From positions 615,271 through 679,270 of the forward strand of contig CAJINV010000012.1 in NCBI GenBank assembly GCA_905178155.1: 64,000 nt of DNA, given 5' to 3'. This document shows, piece after piece, positions 1 through 64,000 of the stretch (position 1 is the first letter of the stretch; each line of letters starts with the position of its first letter). A model generated the notes under the pieces. It worked only from the letters and a program-made list of their open reading frames with translations, ran no database searches and was not told the DNA's origin. Origin of the DNA: Amoebophrya sp. A120 (Eukaryota > Protista > Dinoflagellata). The translations under genes were made by a program, and so were the position numbers.

Positions 1-3000
1 GTTGTAAATCTCATTCGTACCGGCCAAATTTTGCTGGAACTTGGGGAAATTTACCGCGGCCCGATTAGGATTTCGTGCCGTCCGCGTGGCGCTGCCCGAT
101 GGCCGGGTGGAAATCGCGAAACTGTGGTTGGACTGGTGAAAGTTTTCCCCGCTGGCGGCCTTTTGACGAGCAGAGGGAATAGCACCAGTCATCGAGTTCT
201 TGCTGGATGGTGCAGCAGAAGTCGTGAAAGCGATGGTAGACGCCACGACAGGTGCTGGGCGACGCTCTTCCTGCTCGCGGTCTGCACTATGTTCGTGTAT
301 TCCACCACCAGTCGCGGCAGAAGAAGTTGCAGCACTTTCATCCTTCAGCAAACTCGCCGCAGCCGTGGCGAGAAAAGAGTCGTTTCTGGCTGCCGGCGCG
401 GTTTTTGTGAACTTCTGTGAGGAAAACAAGTTCTGCTTGTTGAAAATCGCAGGCATCTTGTCCACCACGCCGGGTTCGTCACGGTGATTTGCGGCTGCAT
501 CAACGCAACTTTCTCCGTCAACAGTAGCCACAAGTTCTTGCGCCCGATCTTGAACCAAGTCGGAGGTCAGGAGAGGAAGAGTCGCTCTTATTCCTCCTGG
601 AAGATCACCCTGAAGATGAACATGTGCCTGCCTCTCGTTTTGCACCACAGCGCTCGTGGTCGTCCCGCTCGTTTTGCAATCCACCACATTCACACCACTG
701 CCGTGTTCGATCTCAGGCAACAAGATACCGGAACACACTGGCTCTGCGCCAGTGGGTATCAAATGTAAAAATGTCTGGGTCTGGAAGATTTCGAGATTTG
801 TCATGCCTATTTGCCATGATCGATGATGTCTGTGATGCATGCCGTAGCATCACAGATTTTTGGAGCGCTTTGTGATACCTCTACCGCATGAGAAATGCCT
901 TCTCCGCGTAGCACAAACTGGAGTCCTCTTGCTGTTCATGCAATACAAATTTTTTCAGAATCCACAGACAGCATCACAAGTTTACAATGTTCCAGACCCA
1001 GACATTTTTGCATTTGATAGCGGGCTGGCTGTGATCTTCCGCTTGTGAGTATGTTGTTGCGTCTTTTCCTCTATCACCTTGATTTATTTCCGAATCTGTT
1101 TTAGTATTCCCTCCTGGCGGTTGTCCAACAGCAACTCCGTTGCTGGCATTCGAAAACGATTTGTTCAGATTCAGCTTCTATCAAGTGTAAAAATGTCTGG
1201 GTCTGGAAACTTGTGATGCCGGGCGGCGTCTCATGATGAGGCTACAAATGCTGGCTCAGCATGACAAGTTTCTGAGCTCCTAGGTGTTGCCTATTCTGCA
1301 TGACAAACTGCGCTTCTGCATCACAGAAAAGCGCAGCTCTTGGGGAACGTGCATGACAGATTTAAGAGCCATGCCAGACAAGCATGACAAACATGAATTC
1401 TTCCAGACCCAGACATTTTTACAGTTGATAGCTTCGTGTTGGAGCTCGCACGCAAACTCGAGCTGCAACGGTTGAGGAAGCTGCTGAACATCCCTGCTAT
1501 GCGGTTGCTGCTGCGATTCAAAGTCGGCATTGGCGGTTGTTGCTGCTCGGAGGAACTGCCTTCTGCCGATTCTACTTCTTCTTCGCAGCTGCTGTTATCG
1601 GCTCGTTCACAGGCGGCCTGCTTGTTCCCGTTCTCTACCATGAAGTCAGGCGGCGATTCCGGGCTGCTGACAGTCTGGGCATTCATCTCAGGAAAATCCT
1701 GCTGACAGTGCCCCTTGCAGCTCAAATCCGTGTTTTTTTCGTCACAGCTGCTCGACCCGCTTTCTTCGCCTAGTTGGGTCGAACTGGAGCTAGCACCGCT
1801 CATGAACCGCAGGAAAGAAAAAGACGAGCTCATCTTGTGCCGCGGAATCGTCGGGCTCGGGGATCCGGACGTTTGCGGCCGAACTAAAGTGGTGCCCAGA
1901 ATGTTCTTTAACGGCGTGGGAGTGGTGGTTCCACGGCTGTTGGGCCGGAGAAGCTGGAGGTCTGGTGGTTGGAAGTTGTTGTGTGGGCGGTTGTTAAGGT
2001 CGACGTAGGGAGCAGTAGTAGTCGTGTGTTCTTCTTGTTGATGTTCCGCAGCTGCACTACTTCCGATTTGGTTCAGGAAAAGGGCGGAGTTCATATCTCC
2101 TGGAGACGAAATGTTGCCAACAGTGGCATGATCTCTATTCCCAACGCTGTTCACCGCCGCAGCCGCTGCGTTCGCCACAGACGCAGATGCCCAGGGGGTC
2201 AAGGGGCTGGGAAGCATAATTTGCTGCTTTCTGGCGTAGTTCTTCGCACCGTCTGCAGAGCTGCTGCCAGTGCTTGGATTGTTGCCTTCATGGCTGTTGA
2301 TTTCCCCGGGAAGTTGCATCTGCTGCACGCCGATTGGCGTCACCGGTATAATCCTGTTCGCGAGGACAGGCGGGGAGGCAACGGATAAAACGGAGTTCGC
2401 AGCTCCGTTTGTAGTGCTCGGCCCGCCCGGTGGTCCAGTACAAATTGCGCCTCCACCACCACAGCTCCCAATCGGTGGCGGCGTCCCGTTTGGAATGTGG
2501 ATTGCGTCGGTTTGGATGGGACTTGAACCCGCGGCACTGGTTATCGGAAGTTGCTGCTGTTGTTGGTGGACAACAGCCGGCAAGACCATCGGTGCAGAAT
2601 CAGCAGGAGCAGCCGCATATGAACTGCAAAAGCATCGCACTCGTATAAATACATTACAAATATCCTCAGCATGAGAAATAAAGTTTGTAATGCGGATTTG
2701 CCTGAAGAACTTCTTGAGGAAAATCCGCATCACAGATTCCATTTCCAACGCTTGCAGAAATGGAATCTGTAATGCGGATTTGCCTGAAGAACAAGATTTG
2801 TAATGCATGATTGCAATACGAGTACGATACTTTTGCACAGGATACCGCAGTATCCGTGACCTGCGCCTTGTCCCAGCCACTGACTGCGGCTTCGAGACTG
2901 TTGTTGATGAGATTGTTGCAGTGCAGCACTGCAACAATCTCCTGTTGTTATCAAAAGAAAAAAGTTCGTCGCGATCACTCATGGGCATTTTTGCAATACA

Positions 3001-6000
3001 AAATTGTCTGTCATGCGTAAAAATGCATCACAGCCACACTTCATAAGGGATTTCCCTAGTGTTTCTGCAATACAAGGAGAAGTTGCGATGCTAAAAAAAT
3101 TTGTAATGCAAAACCTGCAACTTAGTGACTGTGACAAACTTTTTTCTCTCCATAGTTGTTGCTCTACTTGTACTATCCCAGGCGTTGTCGCACAAGCCGG
3201 CGCACAAGCCGCTACCGTCGCAACAGAAGACGCTGGTGTGTGAACCTGGGACAATAGTGGCAGCTCGTCACAAACCGTTTTTGGTGTGAAAATTGTCGTG
3301 TCCGCCGGATTGCTCAGCATCCTGCTGTTCTGCTGCTGCAACTGGGAATTGTAGTGCACACCACGTGAAGATGAAAACACATTCCCGAGACTGTAGTTGT
3401 TTCCAGTTCCACTTATTGCACCATTCGCACCGATAATATCCGGGAGAGGCGTTCTTGTCGGCTTTGAATTATTTCCCCCATGGACATCAACGACAAACTG
3501 CCCGTTTGGCGTCACGATGGTTTCCGCTTGCTGATCTTGTAAAAAATTGCCGTCACAATCCTCCATATTTATCGCGATGGGCGACGGTCGAGGTTTCAAT
3601 CTCTTCCGATGATCGTTCGCCCTACCGGCGCTACCCGGGTTCGGGGTTTTCGAGGATCCAATGAAAGTGGCCGTCATGTCACTTTTCGCCAAAATGTCTC
3701 CCTCTGCCTCCGTCGCTGCGTGAAGACCCTGCTGCTCCCCCTCGTGGTTTGATTCTAGATCAAAGAACTCATTTTCCTGTTCAATCTCCATTCCGTCATT
3801 CACGGTCAAGCCGCTGAAGGTTCGGTGTGATCTGCAAGTCATCACGTCTTCGGACTTTTCGAAGTTGTTAGACATCAAACCTCCGCCGTTTTTTATCATT
3901 TTCAAAGACGTCGACCGTAAATGGTTTTCCAAGTCCCGACTCAGGCCACTTTGACTGCTGTTGCCGCCCCCGCTGATTTCGTGAAGATGTTGGTGATTTT
4001 ATGACAGTGCACAACTCCCCCTCCCCTTTATTTGAATGGCATAAGCAGCAACACAACGAGCTCCGCATGAAAAATCTGCACACGGATTTTTGTAGTACTG
4101 TTTGAGGCTCCAAAATTTGTGATGCAAACTATGCTCAGAGGCAAGATGTGGACTGAGTATTTTGCATTTACAAATGAGGGAGAGGGACAGGGGGAGTTGT
4201 GCACTCTCATAGATTTTCACCACTTCCCATTTCCACTTCCACCGCCGATTTCAAAAAATCGTCCAGCGCATTCGCCAAGTCCGGCGTTTGTGTATTAAAA
4301 AGCAAAACCTGCTCCTGTGACCCATCCACTTCAACGTCCAATGGACTACTAGGCGGGATCCGCTTCTTCCGCTTAGAAGGTGCCGCGGTGGACAGTTTCC
4401 CCCGGTCGGCACTATTCGGCGGATGAGGTGCGGGTAAAATTTGGCTGTGCGCGGTGAGGTTGACATCGTGAGCACTGATATCCGCATCGAGCGAGCCCGT
4501 GTTCGTACCCGTTCCGCCGGCGGAATTTACCGTCTTTGCGTCGTCATCGACATTTGAGGAACCACTTCCACCATACTCGGAATTGTTTTCTTGAAAGTAC
4601 ATTTGGTAGAGCTTCTGTTCCTCCAGTTGTTTTTGGTGTTTCTCCTCCTCCTCCTTCTCTATGTAGTAAAAAAGCTGCTTCCACTCCGCAATGTCATCCG
4701 CGCTGGGGTGGAGCGGGTTCGCTGTTGCTGTGCCTGCGGCTCCATGCTCTACGTCGTGAAGATGGTGGTGATGCTGAGCCGCAGTGGTCATGCTACCGTT
4801 TTGATGAAAATTTGAATCACTCTGGCCTTGTTGCGTCTCCCCTCCTCCTGCTCCTCCACCAGGATGTTGTTGAGCAGCTGCTAGTACACCATCCGGTCCT
4901 ACCGAAGGCCCAACGCCAGCAGGCGGCTGCAACCTCGCAGACCTTGGGTGGCTTGGATTCGCACCAGTTTGTCCCCGCAGGTACACCTGGCGCAACGTGT
5001 TGCCGTGCGAGTGCGGGTTAGAAGAGGTGTGCTGTTGCGGAACAAGAACATTTTGAACAGGACCTCCTACGCCAAGCTGTTGCAGACTCCCGGCGGCCGC
5101 GCCCGGCTTGTTCGCAACGACCCTGTTCGGCGATTGCGACGCCGATGCCGCAGAACGGGTACGCGGGAAGTGGTTTTGTGGTTGGGTATTTTGTACCTGT
5201 TGTGCTTGCGGCGGCGCCGGGTTCGTCGAAGAGGTCGCTGGGTTGGTGCCAACCACAATGCCACTCACCACCAGACAGCCGTTGAGGTCAGAAGCTTGCT
5301 GCTGCTGCTGCTGGTGCTGCTGTAGCTCTCCCGGTGTTGGGTCTGCATTGCAGCTGTTGACAACTACTCCCAGGGGCTGAAGCAGGAACGGGGGTGGGGG
5401 AATTACAGTGTTGGCTGATGTAGTTGCGCTATTAGAAGTTGTGCTGGTACCTGGTGGTACAACGGCTCCTATTTCTGATTGATCTCCCACTTGATCCACC
5501 CCACCTGCGACTGTAATCATCGGACTACTTGTTTTGCTGGCAGTAATGTTCGCTCCAGCCGCCGCCGCTGCCCACGGAGCATTCATGGACACATCTTTTC
5601 TGAATTGTTCGAAGTCACCTTTGCTCTCTTTATTCCCTTGATCATGATGCCCGGAAGTTTTTGTAGCCCCTGCTTCTACTTCTGCACGTTGATTCTTCTG
5701 TGTCTGTCCGTTCGATGCCGTGCTGGACGTTCTCTCCAGCATGGAGTTCGAGGAAGACAGCTTCCGGTGTGCTGTCAAATGTGCTGGAAGTGGAGCCCCA
5801 AGCTGCTGCCCACCGAGTTGCTGCGAGGCACTGTGTTGATTATTCGCCAATACAGCTGCATTGTTCCCGTGTTGGTGCTCGACAGCCCCCGTGCCGCCGC
5901 GCAGGCCATTCGTACTCGGCGGTCGTATTATCCCGCTTGGTGTCAGGCTCGTGCCGCTGTGCCTTCTTGTAGGCCTTTGGGGCGTCCGGGGTAACACTTG

Positions 6001-8181
6001 GTTGTTGACCAAATTGATCTGCATGTTGCAAGACCCCGTTTGCTGGTGGTGGTTTTGATGTTGGCCATTGTTCACACTGTAGCTCATGATCCCGTTGTTG
6101 TGATGCTGATGCTGCATCAGAGCTCCGGTGCTAGCAGCGATGTGCTGGACTCTTGGCGTCGTTAAGGAAGACGTGGTGATCATGCAATTCTGCGCGTAGC
6201 TGTTGATCTGGTGATATTGATCACCGTTCATGCCGCCACTTCCTGAAATGGAACTACCACCGCCTGCGTTACTTCCGTAGAAGTAGCTCTGCACTTGCGG
6301 TAGTCTCTCCAGCACGTGCTTCGCACTGGGCCGGTGGGCCGGGTTGGGCTGCAACATAGAGCTGATCAGCATCGAGAGCACAGAGTTGTAGTGATAAGCG
6401 ATCGCGTTGTTGCCGATAGTACCCGGCGCGCTGCTGTTGGAGTTGTTGTTTGTGCTGCTTCCGCCACTCGTCGTCCCAGAGGAATTTGACGCGGTTCCGC
6501 TGCTCACACTGTTGACTACATTATTCAGCACATTTTCGATTTTCGGAGGTCCCCGGTACACTTGCCGACAAATCTCCACCAGATTCCGCCCGTCAAACGG
6601 GGGTTTCGTCGTGCACACTTCGAAGATGCAACACCCGAGGGAGAAAATGTCGATCTTGTTACTGTAGCTCTTGTTGCTCCAGACCTCCGGGGCGGCGTAG
6701 ACTGGTGAGCCGACGTTCGTATTCGCCATTCCCCGGGTTGACTTCAACATTCGACACACCCCGAAATCCGCCAGGTACACCTGTTTCTGGTCGTGGGACA
6801 GGAGAATGTTGGAGGGCTTGATGTCCCGATGGAGAATGGAGAGAGAATATCAAGCAAAAAAGTGTTAACGTTAATGGTTTTGGGGCATTGCAGTCATGCG
6901 TGACAGATTTTCGCTATCATGCATGCTATGCAATACAAATTTGGGCATCATTTATCGTGCATTCCTGCATGCCAAATTCCGTTAACGTTACCACTTTTTA
7001 GTGTGATAGAGAATGGATGTGGGAGAGCGCCTCAAGTAACTGCTTGAACCACGAAGCGACTTTCCGCTCTGGGATCGGCTTTTTGCAGTTTCTGTTCCTG
7101 CGCTCGTTCATATGACAGTGCACAACTCCCCCTCCCCCTCATTTGTCATGCAAAGTGCCTAGTTTACGCCTTGGCTCTTGGCAATGTTTGCATGACAAGT
7201 TCTGGCAGCCCAAATAGCACTACACTCCTGTCCAAATTTGTCATGCAAAACCTGTACTCTTACTGACGCTTGTATTGCTGTTCATGCAATACGAATGAGG
7301 GGGAGGGGGAGTTGTGCTTGTGCACTCTCATAGTTCAAGAAGAGGTTCAGGTCGCCGCCGTCGATGTACTGTGGAATTTGTCATGCGAAACGTGGAACAA
7401 AGTAAAGGGATGTGATGGCACAAGCACTATCTAGTAGATATAAAAAAGCGCATGAGTGACAGACTTGCAAGCCGGTATGAAAATAAAACTATCAGGACTG
7501 AAGTAGTACCTGCAGCAGCAGAAATATCGTGTAGTTTGTCACTTGGACCCAGTAGCACCGTACGATGTTGGGGTGTTGGATTTTCTGCAGAATCGACCCT
7601 TCCTCCAGCGTATGAAATGCAAAAGCATCGTACTAGTATGAATTGCAATACAAATTGACTTATAGCACTACGAAATAAAATTTGTAATGCTCTTTTACCT
7701 TGGCAAAGAGATTTGTCATGCATAACAGCCATGAATTACTACGAGTACGATACTTTTGCAGAGCATAAAGCGCCAGGTCCTTGTGTTTCTCTGATTGTAG
7801 ATCCGAAAAACAATATTGTTTCAATGCGTACTGCTTCTTCCGGCCATTTTGAATCAAATCCACTTGACCGAAGGCGCCCCGGCCAAGCGACTTGATGGTC
7901 TGGAAGCGGTCTGGGGGTGGGGGTGGGGGGTTTGCAACTGCGTGATCCACTGAAGCAGCTGCAGCTGCTTCTGAAAGTTGGTGGTGGTGCTGGGCCGGAG
8001 GCCGAGGCTGTTGGGGACTGCTGGCGCCATTATTTGTGGTCAACATGATCTCAGGGTCAGGTCGTTGTGCAGCACCGGCTCCCGGCTGTTGTAGATCTCG
8101 GGCGCTTGTTGTTTCGAAAGGACTTGCGGCACCAGAGGTTCTTGAGGACGAGGGTGGATGTACAACTTCGGTGAAGGTCAT
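1..8181 (-). CDS. NEK/NIMA-like Ser/Thr protein kinase with very long low-complexity C-terminal tail; spliced, 3' end runs off the window start
   Basis: After removing 8 introners and 1 GT-AG intron the kinase motifs join in frame: LGRGAFGQV, YALKQ, LQKIQHPNIV, LLQ|YIDGGDL, ILHRDIKPSNILL, LADFG, VGSPVYAAPEVW, DIFSLGC. The frame stays open to position 1. Confidence 0.9.
757..1019. mobile_element. introner family A (TIR TATCAAATGTAAAAATGTCTGGGTCTGGAA), interior type A2
   Basis: TIRs; TSD gtggg/gcggg; removal restores the frame. Confidence 0.9.
1179..1430. mobile_element. introner family A, interior A3
   Basis: TIRs; TSD gcttc/gcttc; similar to 55925-56176. Confidence 0.92.
2618..2844. mobile_element. 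introner family B (TIR TATxxxxTGCAAAAGTATCGTACTCGTA) with an extra internal hairpin
   Basis: TIRs; TSD ccgca/ccgca. Confidence 0.92.
2949..3154. mobile_element. introner family C (TATC..AAAAAAGTTCGTCxCGATCACT)
   Basis: Imperfect TIRs; TSD gttgt/gttgt; near-identical copies at 55539 and 60004. Confidence 0.92.
4000..4211. mobile_element. introner family D (TATGAxAGTGCACAACTCCCCCTCCCC)
   Basis: TIRs; TSD gattt/gattt. Confidence 0.92.
6848..7008. mobile_element. introner family E (TATC..AAAAAGTGTTAACGTTAA)
   Basis: TIRs; TSD gagaa/gagaa; lies just upstream of the kinase HRD motif. Confidence 0.9.
7111..7332. mobile_element. introner family D
   Basis: TIRs; TSD gttca/gttca. Confidence 0.92.
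7369..7509 (-). other. canonical GT-AG intron in the kinase gene
   Basis: cag|GTACTA...CCACAG|tac joins LLLQ to YIDGGDL. Confidence 0.85.
7611..7767. mobile_element. introner family B
   Basis: TIRs; TSD cagcg/aagcg. Confidence 0.9.
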
Positions 8182-8909: not shown

Positions 8910-11900
8910 TCAGACGTAGACTGTCGCGTCCATCTGCATGCAGAAGTCTTCAACTCGCGGAAAACAGTTTTCTCTCGGCACCACCAACTTGTTGTGGTGT
9001 ATCGTCAGGTACCCCTTCATCCCCCCGTAGCTTATCAGCTGGCTCAGCACCGTTTCGACCTCTGCAGCAGAGTCGTACTGGGCCGTGATATCCTCCGTTT
9101 GGACCTTCGTCGGGCACTCCGAGATCAAAAACTGTCGGAAGCAGGAAACGACCAAAGACAGGTCAATCTTCAGGGACTTCGGCGGCGCGGCGGGTTTGGG
9201 GTAGAGTTCGGGAAACTCAGTCTGCATCTGCGCCGTGCAGAGCTCGTGACACTTGATGATTCTGCGAATGAACTGCCGAGTCACAATGTGCTTCACTTGG
9301 GACATCAGATTCACGATACCTGGATAGTTTCACAATTCGGGGAAAGTTGTTTTTGCCTTGTAAGGAAGTAGTCAAGAAGAAGCATAGATACCACTAGCAA
9401 GGGACTGATGCTTTCTTGCAGTGTCGTGGGGGCTACAGCAACAGCAACACAATTACGACAGAACCATGTCAGAATCATGAATCAAACACCACGACAAGAA
9501 GAAATCATCTAAAAACTATACCAAGTTTGACAAAAACCAGTGTCTGGTCCTGGCTGGCCTTCTCGTATTTCACCAAATCCCCCGCTTTTATCGCGTTGAT
9601 GATCCGACCGAAAATTGCCTCCAGCTCGTACTTTTTCAAAAGAGCCTTCGACGGCAAATACCCTTTCCGTATCCTCAACGGGATCAAGAAATGCAGCATC
9701 TGCCTTTTCTGCTCGTAGTGGTCGTTTCGCGTCGCGCCAGAGATCAAGTTCATGGTGGATGAGGTTTGGGGAAGCTATGCACTGCAAAAGCATCGCATTC
9801 GTATAAATGGAAGTCTTGCATGACAGATCTGCTCTTTTCATCCCTGAAGCTGCATTACAAATTTCATTGTCGCTTTTGGAAAAATTTGCCATGTGATTTC
9901 TACTAAAGGCGATACTTGTGCAATGCATAAAAACATGTTGGAGTTGAAACTGTCCCGCATCAGCTGGCTGTAGCCCCAGGAAATTTTCCGCTCCGCCTCA
10001 GCGTAATTGCCGGATTGGACCTGGAGACCAGTTTCGTTTGATTTCAACGCGCAAAACATCACAACATAACACACAGCGCTACTTCTCGTACTTTACAAGA
10101 TATCATGATACAACACCAGAGCTACTGTCTCCGCGTTTCGATTTTCATCAAAATGAACAGCTCCGATCGAAAATCAATAAAGGTAGAATAAACACCAAAA
10201 ACTTCTCAGTTTACCAGACAAACACCCCAGTAGTAACTGAGCGTGACACTGACAGCGGGAGGAACTCCGGCCGTTGGGAAGCCCGGTCCCATCCTCTTCA
10301 GGCTCTTGTATCCTGACTAAAACTGTTCCCACACCAGAGGCAAGATGGGAAATCTGCTAGACAAATCCACCAGCTTTGGTTGTTTCGCATGACATGTCTG
10401 TCCCCGTATTGTAATCCTGTTTAGCTAGTTCCGAAGCATCACAGATCTAGCCCAGCATGCTAATTCGAGCATCACAAATTCCACAACACGACTAGAAAAT
10501 GGCTCTCATGGGGCGTCGCATGAGACACTTTTTCGGCATGCAGATTTGCATGACAACTCTGGGGGGTGGGAACGTTTTTACTCAGAATATCTTGTCGCCC
10601 GGTTTTATGCCCATCTGCTGCAAATGCAGCTGCTCGAGCTGCTGCACGTTTCGCAAAATTTGCTCGACTAGCGACACCTGGAACATCGCGAGGCAGCACC
10701 GAACCAATTCTGTGGTCGTCGACAAAAACCCGGCGCGCTTCTGCTTCTCCCGGACCATCTCTCCGAAGATTTTTCGGAGGTGCTCAACCAGCTTGTTCAT
10801 GTTTTCATTGGTGTCCGTTGATTGGGAGTTGAAGTGTAAGTCGATGTTTTCCGCCTGCTCCCGGGCCCAGGCGAGAAGCACTTGGAAAGCCGGTATCATC
10901 CAGATGTGGTTCTCGTACTGGTCTCTGGTGTTGCAGTACAAGGTCGACCAGTCCCGGAGTGCGAGGTAGCAGTGTTCTGTTATTTGGAGGAAATTATAAA
11001 GGCCGCTTTTGCTACTTTTCAGTGAATACATACAACTAGTGAGGAGGCAACATCAACATCGGATCAAAAAAAGAAGACATTAGACAAACAACGCTTATTT
11101 CTAGATAAAAGCTAGCATCATAGTCTGTAGTACGCAAGCTCTCGCACATCAGTGGTTTTGCCTTTGGGTTCAGACCGTAGTGCAGCGCCTCGCAGTAGAT
11201 CTTGACCATCTTCACGTAGTTTACGACAAAAGAGGACAACGGCTTTTTCATTTCTTTTGCGTCCTCGAAATTTTTCGAAAACGGGGACCCATCATGAAGT
11301 GCAAAAGTATCGTACTCGTAGCAGTTATCGCAATCGTGCATGACAAGTCTCTTCCTCAAGGCAAATCAGCATGACAGATTTCCTCTCTCATTCTGAGAAG
11401 ATTTGTATTGCAAGTACTACTAGTACGTCAATACTTTTGCAGTTCATACCCGTTCTGCGCGAACGAGAGCTGGTCAATTCCCCGCTGCACGCTTATGGAG
11501 TTCTCAACTGTTACATTCTCAACTGTTGCATGAATTTGTAATGCAAGAATGGGATGAAAAGTCAAAGAGGGGAGGTTGCACCTGTAGCATGACAAATATC
11601 TAGTTGCTGTTTAGCCTTTCGAAAATTTGTCATGCGAAGTAGCTTGACTGTGAGAATGTTGGCCGTCATTTTGCATGACAAATCATGTAACAGTTGAGAG
11701 TGTAACGTTTGAGAATCCCATAACGCTCGCTTCTATTGCCTCCTTCGTTTTTCCCCGGACCATTTGCTGCTTGTCCCCCCAGTCCGGGCCGCGGATGGAG
11801 ACACAAACCGCGAGCTCCTCACGGCGTTCCGCCGCCATGAGATTTGCGAAGTTGAAGGAAAACTGGGCAATTTCGTCCTGGTTCCGCTGGTTGTACATCA

Positions 11901-12051: not shown

Positions 12052-12128
12052 AGTGTTGTAGAAAGGATTTACTTACTTTCGTGTCGCTTAAGGTAGAGGG
12101 AAATTATGTGTCTCAGGCAATAAATTAA

Positions 12129-12251
12129 ATTGAAGACGTCAAACTCATGTCGCCCATTAGGTCTAGATTGAAGACGTCAAAACTATTAGGTCTAGTAAAT
12201 ATAAATTGAAGACGTCAAACTATCATAGAAATTATCGCCCATTAGGTCTAG
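12129..12251. repeat. modular short repeats upstream of PCID2
   Basis: 3x ATTGAAGACGTCAAA interleaved with 3x ATTAGGTCTAG. Confidence 0.75.
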
Positions 12252-13150: not shown

Positions 13151-13515
13151 CTACGCGCCGGTGTTCATAATCAATGTGATGTTGTCCCCTTTCAGCAGGA
13201 TCTTCCCGACACTCCTGCGGCTCTGCTTCTTCACGTAGAACTCCTCTGCCTCGTCAAGCACGACATTCATGTACTCGTCGAATCCTGTTGTAAAAAAATC
13301 GTGTATTATTTCTCATGCGAGAGAACAAATAGAGCCAAGAACTGTCATGCATAGAACCAAAATATACATCCTATACCGACGATTTTCCCCTCCAATCGCA
13401 TGTCGGTTTGGTCGTACAGCCAAATCTGCACTTTATCCTTGTTCCTCAGATGTGTGAAGATCTGATTGATGGGCAGAGTCATCATCTTCTGCAACTTCTT
13501 GTTGGAGATCGCCAT
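13151..13515 (-). CDS. SNRPE: small nuclear ribonucleoprotein E (SmE), two exons
   Basis: Spliced translation [47 protein letters not shown]|[43 protein letters not shown] is a typical SmE. GT-AG intron at 13285-13376. Confidence 0.95.
13285..13376 (-). other. canonical GT-AG intron (SmE)
   Basis: g|GTATAG...AACAG|ga restores GFDEYMN. Confidence 0.92.
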
Positions 13516-33850: not shown

Positions 33851-34045
33851 AGGCGTAAACTGGTCAAACGTGAAAGCAGCGAAAAAACTAGTGAAATTCC
33901 CAGGAAGGTGCGTGCTTTACACGTACAAATCAACGGACTCAGGTCGTAAACGGCTCGAACGCGAAAACAGCGAAAAACTAGTGAAATTCCCATGAAAATG
34001 CGTGCTTCACACGTACAAATCGACAGACTCAGGTCGTAAACGGCT
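33851..34045. repeat. intergenic tandem repeat, about 90-bp unit, just over 2 copies
   Basis: AGGTCGTAAACGGCT...GAAAAACTAGTGAAATTCCC...CACGTACAAATC..GACTC repeated at 33851, 33941 and (partially) 34031. Confidence 0.85.
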
Positions 34046-51970: not shown

Positions 51971-54900
51971 TCATGTTGCAACTCCATCACTATTCCACCG
52001 GCTTTTCTTCTGAAACAGCAGTAAAACCTCCCGGAAGTTGTTCCTTACTTCGGACACCAGTTCGAAGTTGTAACTTTTCTGTTCTTTGTTCAGAAGAATC
52101 CGTTTGATTATTCTATCACACTTCACGCACTCCGGCATGATCGCGATGTGAATCCAGAAGACGGACTATCAAGCGGAAAAATCCACCCTCCCCATATCGA
52201 AATGGAAATCTGTGATGCAGGATATGAGGTCACAAATCGACTTGTCATGCTAGAAGGCCAAGAGCCGCAGTCGTGGTCTCGTTTGCAGGCAATTTGTCAT
52301 GCTGTTTCCCACTCTCAGCTACCTCCTAGCGTGCTGAAGATGCAAGGCTCCCACACGCCACCCAGCGCTACAGTCTGCATCTTTTCGTTTTCCCTTCTAG
52401 CATGATAAAGCTGATTTGTGACCACAAATCTGCATCGCAAATTTCTAGTTTGAGTATGGGGAGGGGGGATTTTTCCTTTTGATACGGACTTCAGCGTCTC
52501 CTTCATCCCCCGAATGACCGCGTCTTCTGTACCCGAGACTTTTATCCGTACTCCGATCCGCAGCATTCCCGACTCCAGGAAGGACTCTTGGTACGTCGGA
52601 GCTAGGGCAGCCGGTCCTGCTCGTGGGGAAGGCGGTGGAGCTGCTGCTACGTGCTCGACGACGCCCGGCTTCTCCACACTGCTGGAGGTGGACACGGAAG
52701 TACTAATGTGCTCTTTGTAGGTCTGCGGAAAGCGATTTTTGTGCAAGGCCAGAAAGTTTGGATACACCACTTTCTGCAAGAAACCATCCACCGTCTCAAA
52801 CTCCATGCAGGGGCGACGGGAGGTGGACGACACTGGGGAGACATAGTTCGCGCTCTTCCCGTAGTTCATTGTGCTGATCTTGTTCTCATTGTTCTGTAGT
52901 TGATGTGACGCAGCTCCTGGAGGAGGTGCAGCGGCAGAAATCCCAGCAGCTTCGCCATGATTCTTGTTCAGGACTTTCTCCATCTCCTCTTTATACTCTT
53001 CGTTCTTGCAGTTCACCCACTGCTATGCATTGCAAAACCAAAAGTACTATCGCACTACTAGCATGTTGAATCAATAGCTTAGCATTACAAACTCCCTCGA
53101 GATGAACAAAATTGCAATTTGTCATGCTAATTCAAGTAGAGAGCTGGATCTGTCGTGCATATCTGCAATTAGTACGAGTGCGATACTTTTCTTGCACAGG
53201 ATAACTGCAGGCCGGTGAAGGAGTTCGCGCCCTCCGCAAACTGCTCCGCGATGTTTCTTCCCGGATGCATATCACAGGAAAAAGTGTTAAGGTTAACGGT
53301 TTTCAGTTTCACAGTTGGCAGTTATGCATTACAAGTTTTGCCTTCCATTCATGCAACGCAATACAAATTTGGGCACCTTTTCTGATGCATCAATGCATCA
53401 CAAATTCCGTTAACGTTAACACTTGTTCTTGTTCTTGTGATAATGCAGCTTCCGCTCGACCGGCCTGTACCACCCTGACTTGTCCGAAATGAACAGGGCC
53501 GCGGCCCGAGCCAGAAACTTCCCAGAGTCGAAGGCGTTGAGGGTGATGGGGAAGGAAAATCGGCTGCTGGTTGCGTTGAAAAAAGTCTGAAGGGGCGATA
53601 CAGGACTTATTTTCTCAAGATCATCCTGTGGTGCTGCGGGTGCTGGTGCACTGTCATCCAATAGCTGTACAGCTTCTTCGTCATTTATTTTCGGATGATT
53701 TGATACAATCTCTCTTGGCTCTACTTCTGTAATTCCAACATCCTGCTCCCATGAGCCCTCGTCCCGCCACTTCTTTACCTTCACAGCTAGCGGCGTCTCC
53801 TCCTCCTCCTCCCTGACCGGTATCTATGCATTGCAAAAGTATCGTACTCGTATAAATGCATTACAAACTTCCTCAGCATGAGAAATAGAATTTGTAATGC
53901 AGATTTGCCTTGGAAACGAGATTTCTAATGCAAGACTTGCATTTGTACGAGTACGATGCTTTTGCACAGGATAGTATCGGAGACGCGGCGATTTTGGCGA
54001 ACTTCCATTCTTCTTTATGGGAGTGTCAGGATCGAAGTCGACAAAATCGATAAATTTGCAATGCATAGAATGGATTCCAGTTCGAGCCCAGTTTCTAAGT
54101 GGCGCATGACAAATTCTGGCGGTGCCTAAATCCAGTTTGTTGTAATGCTGTTTAGGCAAAGAAGGCTAATTCTCTCATGCTGCTTTAGCAGCTCGACCTA
54201 TATTATCCCCAAGCAGGCTTTTTGCAATCGGCCTCACTTGCCTGCACTGCAACACACGTATTTCGCGTCAAGCATTTTACGCATCACAAATTTTTTGATT
54301 TTGTCAATTTCGATCCTGTCAGTTCCATATTCATCCTTCAATTTGTAGTCCACGCCGTGCACGAAGACATATTCCGCCGGGTAGTTCTTCACGTACTGGT
54401 TCGTTTTCGCGAACAGATTGTCCAAAGTTTTGTTTAGCACCTTGATTGCCGCCCGACTGCCGTCCAATTCGATTACCCCGTAGCGCGCCCACCCAACCGT
54501 CGCCGCCGCGATCACGCAGTCACCGAAAAACCCCCCGATTTCCAGAAACAGATCCGTGTTTGCGCGGTACTTTTCCAATTCAGACGAGACCGGACAGTCC
54601 AGTGCGTGTTTTCTGCGCACCGCGTCGGCGATCAGATCCCGCTGGGGCAAGACGTAGAAAAAAGGAACGGCGCGCGGCGCGTAAAACCCGTTTTTGTCGA
54701 CGCGATACACCTCCGAGTAGCTCACCGGGATGTCCTCTAATTTGCTAGGGAGCGCGAGCTTTTCGAGAACCGGAAAAAGCGGTGATTCGAGCCACTTGTG
54801 AAGTGCGGGGATGTGGTATGACAGTGCACAACTACTCCCCCTCCCCCTCATTTGTATTGCATGAACAGCAATACGAACGCCAGCGACCCTAGAGCTTGCG

Positions 54901-57900
54901 CAATACAAATTCATGTACTTAATGTAGTTGCACTTGCACTGCTTGGGCGTTCGAAAATTGTCATGCATAATAGTGTCGCAAGGGAGCAAGCGAAATTGTG
55001 GATTTTGCATGAGAAATGAGAACGAGGGGCGGGAGTTGTTGTGCGCTGTCATATGTGGGAATTCGAGAGTTTCGTGACAGGGTCCATGACCGTTTCGAAT
55101 AGGTGCATGTCGTTCAAGTGCATGTACTCCAATTCGTTTCTGAGCAACGTGATCGCGCCGGCTAGGTTATCGAAAGGAAAAATCCCCCCTCCCCATATCG
55201 AAAACGAAAGTTGTGATGCTGTATTTGAGGTCACAAATCGACTTGTCATGCTAGAAGGCCAAGAGCCGCAGTTGTGGCCTCGTTTGCAGGCAATTTGTCA
55301 TGCTGTTTCCCACTCTCAGCTGCCTCCTATCATGCTGAAGATGCACGGCTTCCCAACGCCACCCAGCACTACAGTCCGCATTTTTTCCCGTATAGAATGA
55401 CAAAGCTGACTTGTGGCAACAAATCTGCATCACAGATTTCCGTTTTGATATGGGGAGGGAGGATTTTTCCGGTTGATATAGGTCCGCCCCGTTTTCCAAA
55501 TGGTGGAGAAGCAGAATGTCGAATCTGGACTGAAACAGTATCAAACAAAAAAAGTTCGTCACGATCACTCATGCGCATTTTTGCAATACAAAACTGTTTG
55601 TCATGCGCAAAAATGCATCGCAGCCAAACTTTATTAGGGATTTCCCTAGTGTTTCTGCAATACAAGGAAAATTTGTGATGCTAAGAAAATTTGTAATGCA
55701 AACCCTGCAAATTAGTGACTGTGATAAACTTTTTTCTCTCCATAAACAGTTCGTGAATCACGATCGTGTGGTTCTTCTGCGCGGATTTGTGCTGCTGTTT
55801 CAGAGTTCCCGATGCGGAGCTTGGGTGTAGTTGGGTCGCTGTATCCACTTTAAACGTCGCCTCTTGGGTCCACAGTCGATGCGGCTGCCGGTAAAACTCG
55901 TCCACGAACTCCCGTTTCATCCTGTATCAAATGCAAAAGTGTCTGGGTCTGCAAACGTGTAATGCTTGGCGGCGTCTCCTGATGAGGCCACAAGTGCTGG
56001 CTCAGCATGACAAGCTTCTGAGGTTCTAGGTGTCGCCTATTCTGCATGACAAACTACGTTGCTGCGTCACAGAAAAGTGGAGCTCTTGGGTAACGTGCAT
56101 GACAGATTTAAGAGTCATGCCAGACAAGCATGACAAAAATGCACTCTTCCAGACCCAGACATTTTTGCACTTGATATCCTACGCGCCTGCACGAAAGCCG
56201 CCCAGGCGTCCGCAAGGACCACCCCTTCCGACCGTTCGGTCAGGTGGCAGCAGGTGTCGGTGTAAACCTTATCCGGGTCGATGTGGATTATATTTGGTCG
56301 CTGCTCTTGGGCCGTTTCATCTAGTACATCTGATCCTTGTTGTCCAGTGAAAACTGCCGGCGCATCGCTTGTTTCCCTTTCCGTACCTGCTTCCGCGTGT
56401 ACTCGCCCCGGCAGATAGCAGTTTTCGTAAGTCTCTTCCACTAGATCCTCCTTCGCGAAGCCCAGGTAGCTCCAATGAGCCGACCGGAATTTGGACACAG
56501 ACAAGTCTCCGTAGTAGCTGACGGGGCGGTCGTTCGTGTACAGATAGTCTAAGCCCCGAAGTTGGAACTGTCGCTGGTTTTTGTCCACCTCAAGCTCATT
56601 CAGCATCGCAGTCAAAGCTTGGTGCTCGGAGGTGAAAGAAATGGCTGCCTCCACAGTTGATTCTTCTGACCCGTGATTTGTGCGACTTGCTTGTGCTACT
56701 TCCCCTGTTGCAGCTGGAGGTAAAAACTCAACAGTCGGAAACAGCTTGGACTTCCGATCCCGTTTTGAAATCGTTTTGCCAGATCGTAGAATCGTCACCT
56801 CGTCCTTTTCCGTTTTCGAACTGGAGATGAGCAGTGTCGAGGAAGGGAACGTTTTCTCATCGTTTTCAGGATCATCATCATCGTCGCCTACAGCTTCCTG
56901 CTGAGCACCACTCGCTTTGAGTTCCAGATCGGCTTCTGATGTGTCCTGCGTGCTATCAGCCCCAACTCCTTTCTTTCCAGCTTTCTCTACTTTGTTCGCG
57001 TTCGCAGCGTCCAATGCCTGCTTCCAGCGTTTTCTCTCGTCCTCCAGAAACTTTGCGTGTTTCTCCATCTCGGATAGAGACACACCCGGGTACAGTTGCT
57101 CAAATTGTTTCTGCCGCGGCGATTTGGATTTGTCTTGCTCAGAACTAGAGCTGCTGCCGGTCGTGCCTTCTGCTTCTGCTGGAGAAGTTGCAGACGACCC
57201 ACTCGTACTATCTTCCTCATCCACAGCCCGCACCGCGGACACACACCTCTGAAACCCGATATTCCTTCGCACTCGCGCGATGTGCGACAACGTCGCGAAA
57301 ATGGGCTTTAAAATTTGCGGATGGACGCCGTGAACCAAATCGAAGCGGACGGAGGTCATCATCATGATGGTGAACAGATCGCGTTTATCACCTGCAAATA
57401 TGTCTGGGTCTGGAAGAGTGGAATGTTTGTCATGCAAATTCTGCATGACTCTCGACGTCTGTGATGCACGCCCTAGCATCACAGATTTTGTGAGGGGGGC
57501 TTCCTCCTGATAGTGAGGCCTGTAAGTACCGCATGAGAAATGCCCTCTCGCCGTCGCAAAAACTGGACCTATTTTGCTGCTCATGCAATACAGATTTATC
57601 TAGAATCCAAATCCAGCATCACAAGTTGCATCCTTCCAGACCCAGGAGACATATTTGCAATGCATAGTGTTGGACTCTTTTGAACAAATAGTTCACATCT
57701 TGGTCGTACAACTTCCCCTCGATGGACCGGTGCGTCTGAATCCGCCAGCCGAGCGCCTGCGGGTCGGAGAAGTGGGATAGGAGGTTCAACAAGTTTTTTA
57801 ACACGTTGTAGCAGAAGTTCTGGTGGAGGGGTTTGTGGGTCTGCATGGTCACCGCGTGGAGCGATTCCCGTTGTTTCAAAAATTTCTTCCACTTGTGAAA

Positions 57901-59408: not shown

Positions 59409-62400
59409 TCACACCTGAATCACCACAGTCGTGCCCCCAGGAGCAGGAGCCTGCGGCGGACCGGCAGAACCGTACTTGTTGTACCCCGATGTGGCACCAG
59501 TTGTTGCAGCTCCATAGTTGTTCATCTTCCCACCTCCAAAGCCGTCGCTCTTGCTGAGCGAGTCCAGTAAAAAGATCGTCTGTAATATGGGGGCGTCAGG
59601 ATCGAAATCGTCAAAGTTAAAATAATACGTTTGTCATGCATAAAATACAGCCCACAAAGTGCCTGTCTTGCAGAGTAGGTAAGTGAGGCAGATTGCAAGC
59701 CTGTTGAGGAGTAGAAACTGAGCTGCTAAAGTAGCATGAAAAAAGGCGTCTTCCTTATCCAAACAGCATGACAAACAACTGGATTGCGGTTCTACCCAGA
59801 TTTGTCATGCACCACTTAGAAACTAGGCGCCAACTGGTATCCGTTTTATGCATCACAGATTATCTCAACTCTGACGATTTCGATCCTGACACTCCCATAT
59901 GTAATTCCCGCGTGACGTCAATCAGATTCATGTGGTGCGACTGAATCAGTCCCTCCACACTGGTGGCAACGGCGTGAAAAACCAGTAACAGCAAGTACTG
60001 CAGTATCAAAGAAAAAAACAAGTTCGTCACGATCACTCATGCGCATTCTTGCAATGCAAAATTGTTTGTCATGCGTAAAAATGCATCACAGCCAAACTTC
60101 ATTAGGGATTTCCCTAGTGTTTCTGCAATACAAGGAAGGTTTGTGATGCTGAGAAAATTTGTAATGCAAAGCCTGCTAGTTAGTGACTGTGACAAACTTT
60201 TTTCTCTCCATATGCAGCGTGAACTGCCACCGGTGCGTGACGCCAAACACTTTCAAGACCAAAGCGTCGCTTTCCTGAGCAGGACCAAATGGATCACTTC
60301 CACGACCGTTGTGCCCAGCCCAAAAGTTGTAGTCGTAGTTCGTCTATGAAATGCAAAACCATCGCACCCACTCCCACTCGTACTAATTGCAATCATGCAT
60401 TACAAGTTTTTTCTAAAGGTCAATCCGCGTTTACAAATTTTATTTCTCATGCTGATGGAATTTGTCATGCATTTATACGAGTACGATACTTTTGCACAGG
60501 ATATCGCCCGATCGTCGTACTGCTTGGCCTATCAAATGCAAAAATGTCTGGGTCTGGAAGAATTCGCGATTTGTCATGCTGCTTTTCCATGACCCATGAG
60601 GTCTGGAATGCAGGACCTCGCATGACAGATTCTGCGAGACCTTTCTAATGCCTATCCTGCATGAGAAACTACCTCCCGACTTGGTCAAAACTGGACGACT
60701 TTTGGTAATCACGCAACACAGATTTTTGCATGCTGCAGATTTAGCATGACAAGTTGCAATCTTCCAGACCCAGACATTTTTACATTTGATATGGCCATGT
60801 TCAGGTACAGGTTGAAGCACACGAGAATATCGTGAGAAAAAAGTGTCACAGTTAGAGTTAAGTACACACTCTGATGCATAACCAGCAAGACAAGCAACCT
60901 CTATCATGCAGGAAAAAATGCTTGCCAGTCTCACGTTATGCCGGTTTTCCCTAGTAGTATGCGCATTACAAGTTTTCTTTGCCATACAGAACAACTTTGT
61001 GATGCTGAAATTACAACAAATGTGTAACTGTATACACTTTTTCCCTTGGATAGAGAAGGAACCCCATGTAGTAGGTCAAAAGAAGCGCAAACAGCAGAGA
61101 CATCACGGCCTTGCGCCGCCGCTGCGCGTTTGCGACGGATTGGTATTCATCGGTAGACGTGGTTTATGCATTTCAAAAGTATAATCGCCCACCTAGGAAA
61201 AATCGCATTACATATTGATTTACCCAACATGACAAATTGCACTTGTCATGCTGGTTTACCTGGAAATGCAGAATTGTTATGCATATCTGCAATTAGAATT
61301 AAAACAACTACGAGCGCGATACTTTTGCAGTTGATAGGGTTATATGAACTGCAAAAGTATCGCATTCGTATAAATGCATTACAAATTTCCTCAGCATGAG
61401 AAATAAAATCTGTAATGCTGATTTACCTCAAGAAAAAGATTTGTAATGCAGGTATCGCATTTATACGAGTACGATACTTTTGCACAGGATAGGTTACGTC
61501 GTCTTCGTGGACGGAAGCGGTGCAGGCCTGACAGTTGTAGTAAAGTTGTCATGCATGAATTTCATTTCAAAATTACGCTTCACGCAAAACAAGCATTACA
61601 AAAAGGCACTGTCTTGCATGAAAGCCACAAAACACTATACCGCAGACAGCAGGAAGAACGCGGCGCCACCCCCGCAGAGCAACGGCTATGCAATACAAAT
61701 TTCCCGCACATGTACAACATGCATCACAAATTTCACCAATTTGGAGCGTAAAACTTGTCATGCTAAATGAGGATCGAAGCCAAGTTTTGTCATGCAGATA
61801 CCGTATTTGTACGTCGTGTACGGGAGATTTAAAGTGGATAACGGCAAGAAGAAGTGCACGGCGAGCGAGTGCATGTACAGGTTGTAGAAAGTGATCACGA
61901 ACAGCATCAGTAAGCAGAAGATAAACAACCAAACACTCCAGGTTTGGAAGATGCTCTGCTCGCCAGATTCGCCGATAATTGCACTTCCATTTTTCGCGTT
62001 CGTGTTTCCCATCGTGGATCCAGCAGGCCAGCTATGATCAGAAAGAAGAGAATGAATTTTGTCAATTTCGAATGATAATCCTAGGTTGGAGATGACACAG
62101 GGCAACTCCAACGCGAGGGCTTCTATTAAATTTGTGATCATGTTGTATGGTAGACGCCTGCTCCACATTGAGCTAGGTAGATGCAAGTCGTTTTTCCTTT
62201 CTCATGTTAGCAAGATCTTGGTACTACGTACAAGCATGTATCGCTTCTCTTCCCATACAGCTGCGCTACCGCCCCGCCAGCAATGTACTCTTGTTGCTGT
62301 TGATTCACGGTTGCACCACCCGCTAATTTGCTTTTCTCTTCGAGCGATGAAATGTACTCTTCGGCCCCGTCTTTCCCAACCTTCGAACTGCTCGTGGTTA

Positions 62401-64000
62401 TCACCATACGGAGCAGGCAAACCGTATGCATTGCAAAAGTAAATCGTACTCGTGTAAATGCATTACAAATTTCCTCAGCGTAAAATTTGTAATGCGGATT
62501 TACCTTAAGAGCAAGGTTTGTAATGTATGTTTGCGATTACTACGAGTACGATACTTTTGCACAGGATAAACGGCATTCACGGTCGACACGAGGACGAGAA
62601 CCACGGTCGAAAAGTCGGATCAAATGCAAATGTGTATGGGTCTGGAAACTTGTGATGCTAGTTCGTGAATGGTAGGCAACCTCCGTTAAGGGGCCACGCA
62701 TGACAAGTTTCTGTGCAGCTACTTCTTGCATAACCTGCATGAGAAGCTGCGTTTTTGCATGACACAAAAGAGATGTTGGTATAGCACATCACGCATCACA
62801 GCTTTTGCTCTCCTGTGTGCCAAGCATGACAAATCTCGCAATCGCAATCTTCCAGACCCAGACATATTTGCATTTGATAAGTCGAAAAGTAAGTCCAATT
62901 TGTCGAGTCTGGGCTGGTGTTGAACAAAACTTCCGCTATTCTGCTGCTGATGCTGATGTCCTCTGTTCCTGTTCCCCCCACCGCCACCGATCCGGTCGTG
63001 CGTCGCGCTCTGCCAGTTGATCCGACCACCGTTATTTTGATGATTTCCACCGCCTGGCGTCGGAGCCGGGTGTTGATGATTTGCGCTGCGCAGCCCCATG
63101 AACACCCGGAGGGACTCGCCGTTGTGGTGAAACACCGCGTTCAAAGCCGTGAAGAAAACGAAAAAGGTTTGGAAGAAAAGGAAAAAAACCGTCACCCAGA
63201 GGCCGACCTGGTTCAGGGTGCGAGAAGTGTAGACCAGCGGGGAGGGGTCGATCACGGTCTTTAGATCTGATGTGTGTTTTTTTTTTTTACGTGAGTAACT
63301 GAACTGTTCTTACACGGACGAAGATGTTGTGCCGCAGCATCCGATGATCTTTGAAGGAGGAGGATATCATGCTCATCAACATCATTTTCATCGTACATAA
63401 AAATATACTACCTGAAACTGACTGCAACACTGGGCCCTTGATATTCTGTCCGCCACCGCCCCCCTTCAAATTTGCGGCACGGCTCGTCATCTCGGTTCCA
63501 TTTCCGTTGGCCACCAAGCCGCCCAGCTGCTCCGCGAGCGTCTTCCCAAAATTCGGCATGGCGACCCGCAAGATACAGGTAAAAACACACCAGAGGAGGA
63601 GCAAGACACACCCGACGACGAGAAAAACCGTCGTGAGAGTTTCCCGTGCAGAGTGGGCGTCCAACACGCCGGATACAGCGCTGTTGTTCATCCCATGTTG
63701 ATGACTTCCGCTTGAAGGTGTTCCCCCTCCATAATTTACCGGCCAATTCTTGCTCACATACAAAACCGCCACGTTTCCGATCAGCAAACCCAGACAGACT
63801 ATCAAAGCGTAATTCAAGTGGTGCGCGCTATGGATGTGTCAGGTTTGAAATCGACAAAGTTGAAATAATTTGTCATGCATAAAATGGATACCAGTTGGGA
63901 GACCAATTTCCAAGCGGCGCATGACAAATTTTCCGAGCACCGAAGTCCAATTTGTCATGCTGTTTGGGCACAGAAGACTGCTTTTGTCATGCTCCTTTAG
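59409..64000 (-). CDS. multi-pass membrane protein, 5' end outside the window
   Basis: Several hydrophobic helices (YALIVCLGLLIGNVAVLYV, TVFLVVGCVLLLLWCVF, VWLFIFCLLMLFVITFY, SLLFALLLTYYMGFLLVCF, QYLLLLVFHAV). The frame from about 61520 to the stop at 59409 is restored by introner removal. Confidence 0.7.
59586..59899. mobile_element. introner family J
   Basis: TIRs; TSD tgtaa/tgtaa. Confidence 0.92.
60004..60212. mobile_element. introner family C
   Basis: TIRs; TSD tgcag/tgcag. Confidence 0.93.
60345..60503. mobile_element. introner family B
   Basis: TIRs; TSD tcgtc/tcgcc. Confidence 0.9.
60530..60791. mobile_element. introner family A, interior A1
   Basis: TIRs; TSD tggcc/tggcc. Confidence 0.93.
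60828..61052. mobile_element. introner family L (TATC...GAAAAAAGTGTxACAGTTA)
   Basis: TIRs; TSD gagaa/gagaa; frame restored (GFLL|VCFNL). Confidence 0.88.
61165..61336. mobile_element. introner family B, diverged
   Basis: TIRs; TSD tggtt/gggtt. Confidence 0.85.
61343..61491. mobile_element. introner family B
   Basis: TIRs; TSD ggtta/ggtta; only 6 nt from the previous element. Confidence 0.92.
61540..61800. other. intron rich in introner boxes but lacking paired TIRs (left boundary uncertain, 61528-61540)
   Basis: Many GCATNACA/TGTNATGC boxes; ends GATA at 61800; possible TSD ttgta/ccgta. Confidence 0.6.
62425..62567. mobile_element. introner family B
   Basis: TIRs; TSD approximately aaccg/aacgg (right end +/-1 nt). 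Confidence 0.88.
62618..62879. mobile_element. introner family A (left end GATC)
   Basis: TIRs; TSD agtcg/agtcg. Confidence 0.9.
63267..63411 (-). other. canonical GT-AG intron
   Basis: tca g|GTAGTA...CATCAG|at cta joins ORFs 63287-63817 and 62719-63255 in frame. Confidence 0.75.
63829..64000. mobile_element. introner family J, truncated by the window end
   Basis: Left TIR; interior is the reverse complement of the right part of 48857-49164. Confidence 0.9.

Follow-up and report, generated by a model that had tools for sequence, protein, structure and literature searches.

Introduction

The introners of the dinoflagellate Amoebophrya sp. A120 fall into families that differ in their terminal inverted repeats (TIRs), and 58 of these elements lie in one stretch of 64,000 nucleotides (contig CAJINV010000012.1, positions 615,271 to 679,270), hereafter called the window. 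The question raised by this locus is what such families have in common. An initial reading made from the letters of the window (the sequence-only reading) proposed that a short internal box, GCATNACA, is a cis-signal that spans the families, acting either as a protein-binding site or as a self-complementary RNA stem, and that the TIR is a free spacer that needs only to pair. According to the available portion of the report on this organism, A120 has about 30,000 repeated introns with no known mover or splicing route, and no family-specific signal was found among them (PMC7789003).

Here we describe the box as a selected sequence whose spacing points to a protein on double-stranded DNA. As judged from its sequence features, the box is probably the site for one protein system that mobilizes all of at least 12 introner lineages.

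Results and Discussion

A short box is concentrated in introners

The box occurs 178 times in the window (91 on the plus strand and 87 on the minus strand), compared with 9.49 ± 2.84 occurrences in dinucleotide shuffles. Its variable base N is G in 91 cases, T in 44, C in 40, and A in 3. Iterative refinement yielded the motif W-GCAW-B-ACA-RRTT (15.8 bits), in which A is nearly barred at the variable base. All 10 box positions cited in the sequence-only reading indeed carry the box.

The 58 elements of the window correspond to 56 automatic calls from which three were dropped, with the addition of four copies recognized by eye and a truncated copy at 63829. The dropped calls (15404, 42834, and 62124) were weak, lack the box, and are likely false. 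Together, the elements span 13,207 bp and account for 167 boxes (12.6 per kb), whereas the other 50,793 bp account for the remaining 11 (0.22 per kb, which is roughly chance level). The box is therefore 58-fold denser inside elements. At least two strict boxes are present in 49 elements, as expected from the earlier claim that nearly every copy carries several, and five elements have one box and four have none. The claimed rarity in exons and intergenic DNA is borne out, but the box is not limited to elements with TIRs. Three of the 11 outside boxes (7379; 13343) fall in predicted GT-AG introns that lack TIRs, and two further boxes that were initially counted as outside (61547 and 61593) are also located in such an intron.

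Two candidate identities for the box were rejected. The ApiAP2 site motif, TGCATGCA, is seen four times in the elements versus 92 expected (14 versus 11 expected in other noncoding DNA). The element terminus, considered as a box in its own right, receives poor matrix scores, although a few ends do score at +4.

The box is a selected sequence

The window copies were supplemented with 163 loci (L001 to L163) from one metagenome assembly (contigs JACKZZ01…) that were retrieved with the family A TIR pattern. This sample is skewed toward family A (189 of 401 copies), and its source may be the strain of the window or one close to it; among the best 20 matches, no flank of these copies matched the window. 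The 344 copies kept from this assembly are those with four or five matches in their target site duplications (TSDs).

In 21 family alignments (333 copies), conservation is 0.948 for the seven core bases of the box, 0.821 for the other interior positions, and 0.814 for the variable base, and the core is more conserved than the interior in every one of the 21. Among 495 copies that were found by BLAST without selection on their ends, core divergence is 0.24 to 0.33 of the interior rate. When the boxes are masked, 64 of the 66 pairs among 12 lineage consensuses have z scores below 3 (the exceptions are 5.3 and 3.5). Because the cores are more conserved than their neighbors and the masked lineages lack similarity to each other, the box is a selected sequence and not a passive ancestral residue. 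The proposal of a cis-signal that spans families thus holds for at least 12 lineages.

Box spacing follows a helical period

The number, order, and orientation of boxes vary between families, and their spacing is kept. A same-strand pair of boxes 31 to 33 bp apart is present in 11 of 12 lineages (null expectation 1.6; P < 0.001 after look-elsewhere correction). At 24 element ends, the distance to the first box is bimodal, being 33 to 37 bp in nine cases and 41 to 51 bp in 15, with none at 38 to 40 bp; the fixed settings are 33 to 35 or 41 to 46 bp. With the 31- to 33-bp pairs treated as rigid, all 16 minus-to-plus distances of up to 150 bp fall at 2.5 to 7.5 modulo 10.5 (R = 0.74, P = 0.001). 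A scan of periods from 8 to 14 for opposed pairs gave 10.5 as the best value (P = 0.004), and 11.0 was worse. Phasing is weak when plus-to-minus distances (P = 0.14) or same-strand distances (P = 0.03 to 0.17) are considered alone. The same-strand pairs and the 10.5-bp phasing point to a protein that binds double-stranded DNA. The sequence-only reading had mentioned neither the fixed spacings nor the helical phasing, and likewise not the 5-bp target duplication described below.

An additional introner family with a GGGGTGGGGG TIR core, which is not part of our element library, was observed at four loci (L054:12862, L061:3738, L062:2869, and L065:2913). Its copies carry 31- and 33-bp box pairs.

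Selection is favored at mobilization

The rate at which box cores change, relative to the interior, is 0.15 for internal branches and 0.40 for tips. This contrast resembled a squared-rate artifact, and hence it was checked by simulation with one run per model. A uniform-rate model gave 0.33 on internal branches and 0.40 on tips, whereas a relaxed-tip model gave 0.17 and 0.46 and was the best match.

TSD mismatches within families were then used as a clock for the time since insertion (468 copies). By this measure, cores decay after insertion with a slope of 0.0137 per TSD mismatch (confidence interval [CI] 0.007 to 0.022). The corresponding rates relative to the interior are 0.79 (0.46 to 1.48) for TIR positions 15 to 30 and 0.14 (−0.24 to 0.51) for the terminal TAT. 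A pooled in-place core ratio of 0.45 was set aside because it is confounded by family mix; separation of the families changes it to 0.55 to 0.66 (about 0.9 uncorrected). We also looked for a shortage of copies with at most one intact box and observed none (33 versus 25.8 expected). The contrast between internal branches and tips, the decay after insertion, and the exact removal of old one-box copies (see below) favor a box that is selected at mobilization, with weak or no constraint in place.

Element ends, insertion, and removal

All TIRs share a 14-nt end, TAT-S-N3-TGC-AAAA, and only positions 15 to 30 are specific to a family (0.93 conserved within families and different between them). The claim that the TIRs of different families are unrelated therefore applies to these inner positions and not to the common end. 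Among 114 ends, which were selected on near-TAT, the first three positions are T in 111, A in 113, and T in 114, and positions 11 to 13 are A in 93 to 102. In 374 copies, the terminal T (T1) is never changed at the 5′ end, whereas 11 of the 374 have a changed T1 at the 3′ end (P = 0.0009; T1 was one among 30 positions compared).

For target duplications, we considered 408 TAT-S…S-ATA candidates that were picked regardless of their flanks, with seven overlapping loci excluded. Exact 5-bp TSDs are present in 282 of these, a 4-bp TSD in one, and a 6-bp TSD in none. No sequence bias of the TSD was detected, and this includes any bias toward G before the terminal TAT, AG, or a splice-site dinucleotide. 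Because all families share their ends and their TSD length, a remote common origin of all families is likely. The elements fit the features of miniature inverted-repeat transposable elements, being short and present in many copies, with a TIR and a TSD and no open reading frame (ORF). A search for the family S TIR in viral contigs gave no matches.

The TIR cores (positions 15 to 32) are mostly 6-bp tandem repeats, such as GTCTGG, CTCCCC, GTTAAC, AGTGTA, and CCCCAT. A perfect 5-mer is repeated at period 6 in six of 12 left ends (null expectation 0.2), and periods of 4, 5, 7, and 8 are found in zero or one. Twelve different self-complementary cores fit the suggestion that the TIR is a free spacer that needs only to pair. 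However, TIR positions 4 to 7 pair in 37 to 73% of copies, the two arms of one copy are hardly more similar than arms from different copies, compensatory changes amount to 49 of 383 versus 33 expected, and the 6-bp tandem is shared. The suggestion is at most partly right: pairing may be all that some TIR positions require, but the TIR is not free.

Contigs from sequencing runs that we guess to be RNA skip the element plus one TSD exactly at all four listed joints, and the old one-box copies at 36032 and 46992 are still removed exactly in such contigs. One of these runs also skips a GT-AG intron at 63267 to 63411. For 292 of the 401 copies, removal of the element and one TSD yields a coding frame with a callable strand, and the larger families are present in both orientations within genes. 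About 190 RNA reads of another run, X9, match the right end of a family A copy (60704 to 60792) with other flanks and do not cover the window exons. A related organism has a family A-like copy, which is retained in the reads at one locus.

Among copies with long flanks, 371 of 375 are found in an open-frame context, and none lies in the long intergenic stretches of the window. Because nearly all copies are in coding DNA, this near-restriction suggests targeting beyond selection alone. The insertion site within the codon is uneven in a provisional phase count of 374 insertions, with 112, 178, and 84 having 0, 1, and 2 bases before TAT.

Comparison with known systems

The elements correspond to the introners already described from A120, which have ends of TAT plus seven variable bases plus AAA, direct repeats at their borders, a length of about 240 nt, and noncanonical splicing in the available text of that report (PMC7789003). 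Family lengths also match (about 106, 149, 160, 208, 252 to 262, 279, 305, and 320) in the 22 of 58 table rows available from a second report (PMC12130899). Most of these rows are labeled “TIR DNA, Unknown” with TSDs of 2 to 5, whereas the TSD here is uniformly 5 bp. Family 38 of A120 is listed in the same source with TIRs and Copia-like ORFs.

No description of the internal box, the spacing rule, the 6-bp TIR tandem, or the 5′-T asymmetry appears in the available text of the introner literature (PMC7789003, PMC12130899, PMC11282704, PMC11453091, PMC12166617, PMC6482013, and PMC12501133), although motifs that are given in figures could escape such a comparison. The sole match listed for GCATGACA in literature text lies within a primer. 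Elements of this type and transposons with multi-site ends are already known, and the other four features appear, as far as these texts extend, to be newly described.

Multi-site ends occur in Tn7, Mu, and CACTA elements, and hAT elements have TSDs of 8 bp. On sequence grounds, the box is a putative binding site of the subterminal type, since it is repeated near both ends, selected, and strand neutral. In the portion of the Herves study available, hAT transposases bind short subterminal motifs that, as here, are repeated near both ends in both orientations and apart from the TIR (PMC3143072). That motif is specific to one element, whereas the box is found throughout the interior of elements from 12 lineages whose TIR cores differ.

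Ginger elements end in TGT, which differs from our elements, where 973 of 990 ends have A at position 2. In the available text on these groups, the 4- to 5-bp TSD of Ginger2/TDD and the TA..TA ends of IS3EU/GingerRoot resemble those seen here, and the 6-bp TSD of IS3EU/GingerRoot (PMC10045372) contrasts with 0 of 408 candidates. By analogy, the mover may belong to the integrase branch of DDE enzymes, as suggested by the 5-bp duplication and the TA ends, although the TSD of IS3EU and the ends of Ginger do not fit. Finally, the nonconventional introns of euglenids also have a TIR hairpin and TSD-like repeats and lack GT-AG borders. Their code differs in that it consists of paired CDG…CHG termini and fixed spacers, and an internal repeated box is not described in the available text (PMC12501133, PMC11282704).

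Weighing the explanations

We consider it probable that the box is a double-stranded-DNA site for one protein system that mobilizes all of the at least 12 lineages, and a site used in mobilization is the most likely reading because constraint seems strongest on the lineages that kept transposing. Several protein copies would line up along a single helical face and would thereby aid the assembly of both element ends. The protein would be either a DDE transposase of the integrase type or a DNA-binding host cofactor on which the transposase depends, and the element ends would be cut at TAT. Splicing would be read mainly from the termini, where the first T is frozen at the intron 5′ end, and from the hairpin, and not from the boxes.

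Several observations weigh against this mobilization reading. Neither an autonomous element that shares the ends (among TAT…ATA spans of up to 12 kb) nor a candidate ORF for a transposase was found in the window and the loci. Likewise, Farhat et al. reported no transposase in A120 and rejected general mobilization by transposases, as stated in the available part of their text (PMC7789003). The boxes extend beyond the element ends and occupy the whole interior. Single spacings of 16, 17, 35, and 47 each fail the look-elsewhere correction, and the spacing tests are not fully independent because the spacings were recognized in the window before being evaluated on consensuses to which window copies contribute. 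A star-tree simulation also gives a contrast between internal branches and tips (0.17 and 0.43), but it misfits the interior rates. Inserted cores may also decay more slowly than neutrality predicts, with a rate 0.55 of that of the interior (CI 0.28 to 1.0; 2.5% of bootstraps reach neutral). Furthermore, 62 predicted AT-rich GT-AG introns without homology to the element library, which were called by a rough parser, contain 29 boxes (15 sense and 14 antisense) versus 2.6 in shuffles. Some TIR-less introns, including those at 13285 to 13376 and 61528 to 61640, keep the introner layout (31- to 33-bp pairs and spacings of 46 to 48 bp). A box that serves mobility alone may explain these occurrences solely as relics.

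The boxes in TIR-less introns may be left over from extinct families, or they may indicate a host protein that uses the box. Because of these boxes, we consider it possible, if rather doubtful, that a host DNA-binding protein, acting in either orientation, labels introns at the level of the chromosome and contributes to recruiting a spliceosome that lacks U1, with the families converging on the box since only well-spliced insertions in exons survive. Such a mark would agree with the enrichment on both strands and the layout kept in predicted TIR-less introns, with a box common to unrelated TIR cores, with the open-frame context of 371 of 375 long-flanked copies, and with the borderline in-place constraint of 0.55. 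U1 snRNA was also undetected in A25 or A120 in the available text (PMC7789003). However, only 18 of the 62 predicted canonical introns have at least one box and 44 have none, at least one of the 62 (in L062) is an introner absent from the library, and relics of extinct families could account for the boxes of the canonical introns, which were called by a rough parser. Moreover, one-box elements are removed exactly, copies with at most one intact box are not scarce, and the pooled in-place ratio weakens when families are separated. A trace of TIRs was looked for in the canonical introns, and those with boxes score no higher than those without (inverted-repeat score 7.3 versus 7.2). A related scheme, which we regard as unlikely, is that a host or domesticated-transposase protein marks introns on DNA by binding the helically phased box arrays in either orientation and licenses exact removal by the U1-less spliceosome. 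The TAT…ATA ends, the self-complementary hexamer-tandem TIR, and the phased boxes would then make an element both mobile and self-erasing from mRNA.

Explanations that place the box in RNA, or that deny it a function, fare worse. The box resembles the yUnAy branch consensus, contains UnAC, and in several families has its last sense copy 33 to 43 nt before the 3′ end. It could thus be a branch point or a site for a splicing factor, present in both orientations to let an element splice either way, but we find this improbable. Among the 374 copies whose direction could be called, mismatches in the core number 353 of 6,381 (5.5%) in sense boxes versus 403 of 7,234 (5.6%) in antisense boxes (P = 0.94), and no asymmetry was found at the 13 positions tested, while T1 shows one. 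Because the T1 asymmetry was found, this strand test is able to detect an RNA-side signal, as demonstrated for the terminus only. In addition, a 109-bp family whose only boxes are two on the same strand is found in both orientations in frames (4 versus 2), the last sense box of family S lies 70 to 100 nt from the 3′ end, and the phasing is 10.5 and not 11. Therefore, from the original proposal of a protein site, binding by a protein survives as the best reading, and a splicing-factor site on the sense strand does not. The proposal that opposed boxes pair as internal RNA stems that help the intron to fold is very improbable. Box bases are 75% paired in predicted RNA ensembles (60 sampled elements, both strands), 33% with another box, versus 57% for the other interior. 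However, opposed boxes show no covariation at their variable base, which matches in 31 to 33% of opposed pairs (53% in two classes), and matching above within-family shuffles is absent from five of six classes, with P = 0.03 uncorrected in the sixth. The commonest arrangement, on the same strand, cannot pair, and the 109-bp family has no other. Hence, the stem module of the sequence-only reading is not upheld. Least credible of all is that the box is a neutral residue of a common ancestral element. Ends and TSD length are common to all families, and families 3 and 4 are faintly similar (z = 5.3), but the cores are conserved while the inner base and the flanks drift, and box order varies while spacing is kept.

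Features of the window

The coordinates of the introners and of the predicted TIR-less introns are collected in Table 1. Removal of the intron at 61528 to 61640 together with seven introners and their TSDs opens a frame of 209 codons. The host gene of the intron at 13285 to 13376 is presumably Sm-like, and its exon 1 gave no Pfam hit. Pfam hits in 15 window exons are limited to a protein kinase (PF00069; gene at 6440 to 7600) and a diphthamide synthase (PF01902; diphthamide synthase-like gene at 27250 to 29780). The window kinase exon has 79% identity to a protein of Amoebophrya sp. A25. All called genes of the window are on the minus strand. Intergenic direct repeats at 12120 to 12260 (TTGAAGACGTCAAACT three times and CCCATTAGGTCTAG twice) bear no relation to the introners.

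Among predicted canonical introns, the donor is mostly GTAT (28 of 51 introns that start with GTA), which echoes the TAT of introners. One sequence (L060:4653) reads G-TAT-N7-AAA … ATA-CC-AG and resembles an introner turned canonical.

Table 1. Introners and predicted TIR-less introns in the window (signs before box positions give orientation)
Feature	Position	Strand	Remarks
Family A introner	757..1019	.	TIR core GTCTGG x2; boxes -43 -75 +91 +130 +184 +215
Family A introner	1179..1430	.	6 boxes
Family S introner, long form	2618..2844	.	6 boxes
Family E introner	2949..3154	.	boxes +45 -61 +77 +119 -136 -154
Family C introner	4000..4211	.	CTCCCC x2
Family G introner	6848..7008	.	GTTAAC x2; only variant boxes
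Family C introner	7111..7332	.	
Predicted TIR-less GT-AG intron	7369..7509	-	one sense box 10 nt before AG; picked by eye, no RNA joint seen
Family S introner	7611..7767	.	
Family S introner	9776..9929	.	
Family F introner	10309..10589	.	
Family S introner	11293..11448	.	
Family H introner	11494..11722	.	boxes -44 +94 -135 +180
Predicted TIR-less 92-nt GT-AG intron	13285..13376	-	two sense boxes 32 bp apart
Family A introner	17060..17321	.	
Family F introner	19270..19548	.	
Family S introner	19610..19762	.	
Family F introner	20544..20822	.	
Family S introner	20873..21017	.	
Family A introner	21133..21399	.	added by eye
Family S introner	21461..21610	.	boxes +43 +74 -91 -109
Family C introner	24248..24472	.	
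Family A introner	25202..25469	.	
Family D introner	26652..26956	.	
Family H introner	27009..27243	.	
Family A introner	28493..28730	.	
Family S introner	29136..29284	.	
Family A introner	29412..29663	.	
Family A introner	30998..31259	.	
Old family A-like copy	36032..36301	.	one box; RNA-like contig skips 275 nt (element + one TSD)
Family J introner	40306..40521	.	AGTGTA x2
Degenerate family A-like copy	42347..42604	.	no box; no RNA cover
Single-copy element	43269..43453	.	TSD of 5 bp, perfect; internal box absent; no RNA cover
Family C-like introner	44023..44290	.	
Old element	46992..47207	.	no strict box, one variant box; RNA-like contigs from two runs skip 221 nt
Family A-like introner	47652..47941	.	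contigs skip 295 nt
Family F-like introner	48113..48414	.	contigs skip 307 nt
Family A introner	48534..48795	.	
Family D introner	48857..49164	.	
Family I introner	52167..52484	.	skipped in RNA-like contigs
Family S introner	53024..53203	.	added by eye
Family G introner	53270..53442	.	
Family S introner	53825..53973	.	boxes +34 +52 -69 -100
Family D introner	54016..54329	.	
Family C introner	54817..55053	.	
Family I introner	55168..55478	.	
Family E introner	55539..55744	.	
Family A introner	55925..56176	.	
Family A introner	57386..57666	.	skipped in RNA-like contig
Family D introner	59586..59899	.	
Family E introner	60004..60212	.	
Family S introner	60345..60503	.	added by eye
Family A introner	60530..60791	.	
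Family M introner	60828..61052	.	clusters with J
Family S-like introner	61165..61336	.	
Family S introner	61343..61491	.	
Predicted TIR-less 113-nt GT-AG intron	61528..61640	-	sense, antisense, and sense box arranged as in introners, at intervals of ~16 and 46 bp
Family N introner	61687..61840	.	GTACAY tandem
Family S introner	62425..62568	.	
Family A introner	62618..62879	.	
Family D-like introner, cut by window end	63829..64000	.	4 strict boxes

Implications

A box that is shared, selected, and phased provides a concrete bait in the search for the protein. The elements also present three signals that can be mutated separately: the terminal T on the RNA side, the box on the DNA side, and the TIR core of each family. 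Should the binder prove to be a host factor, the definition of introns on DNA would be a novelty.

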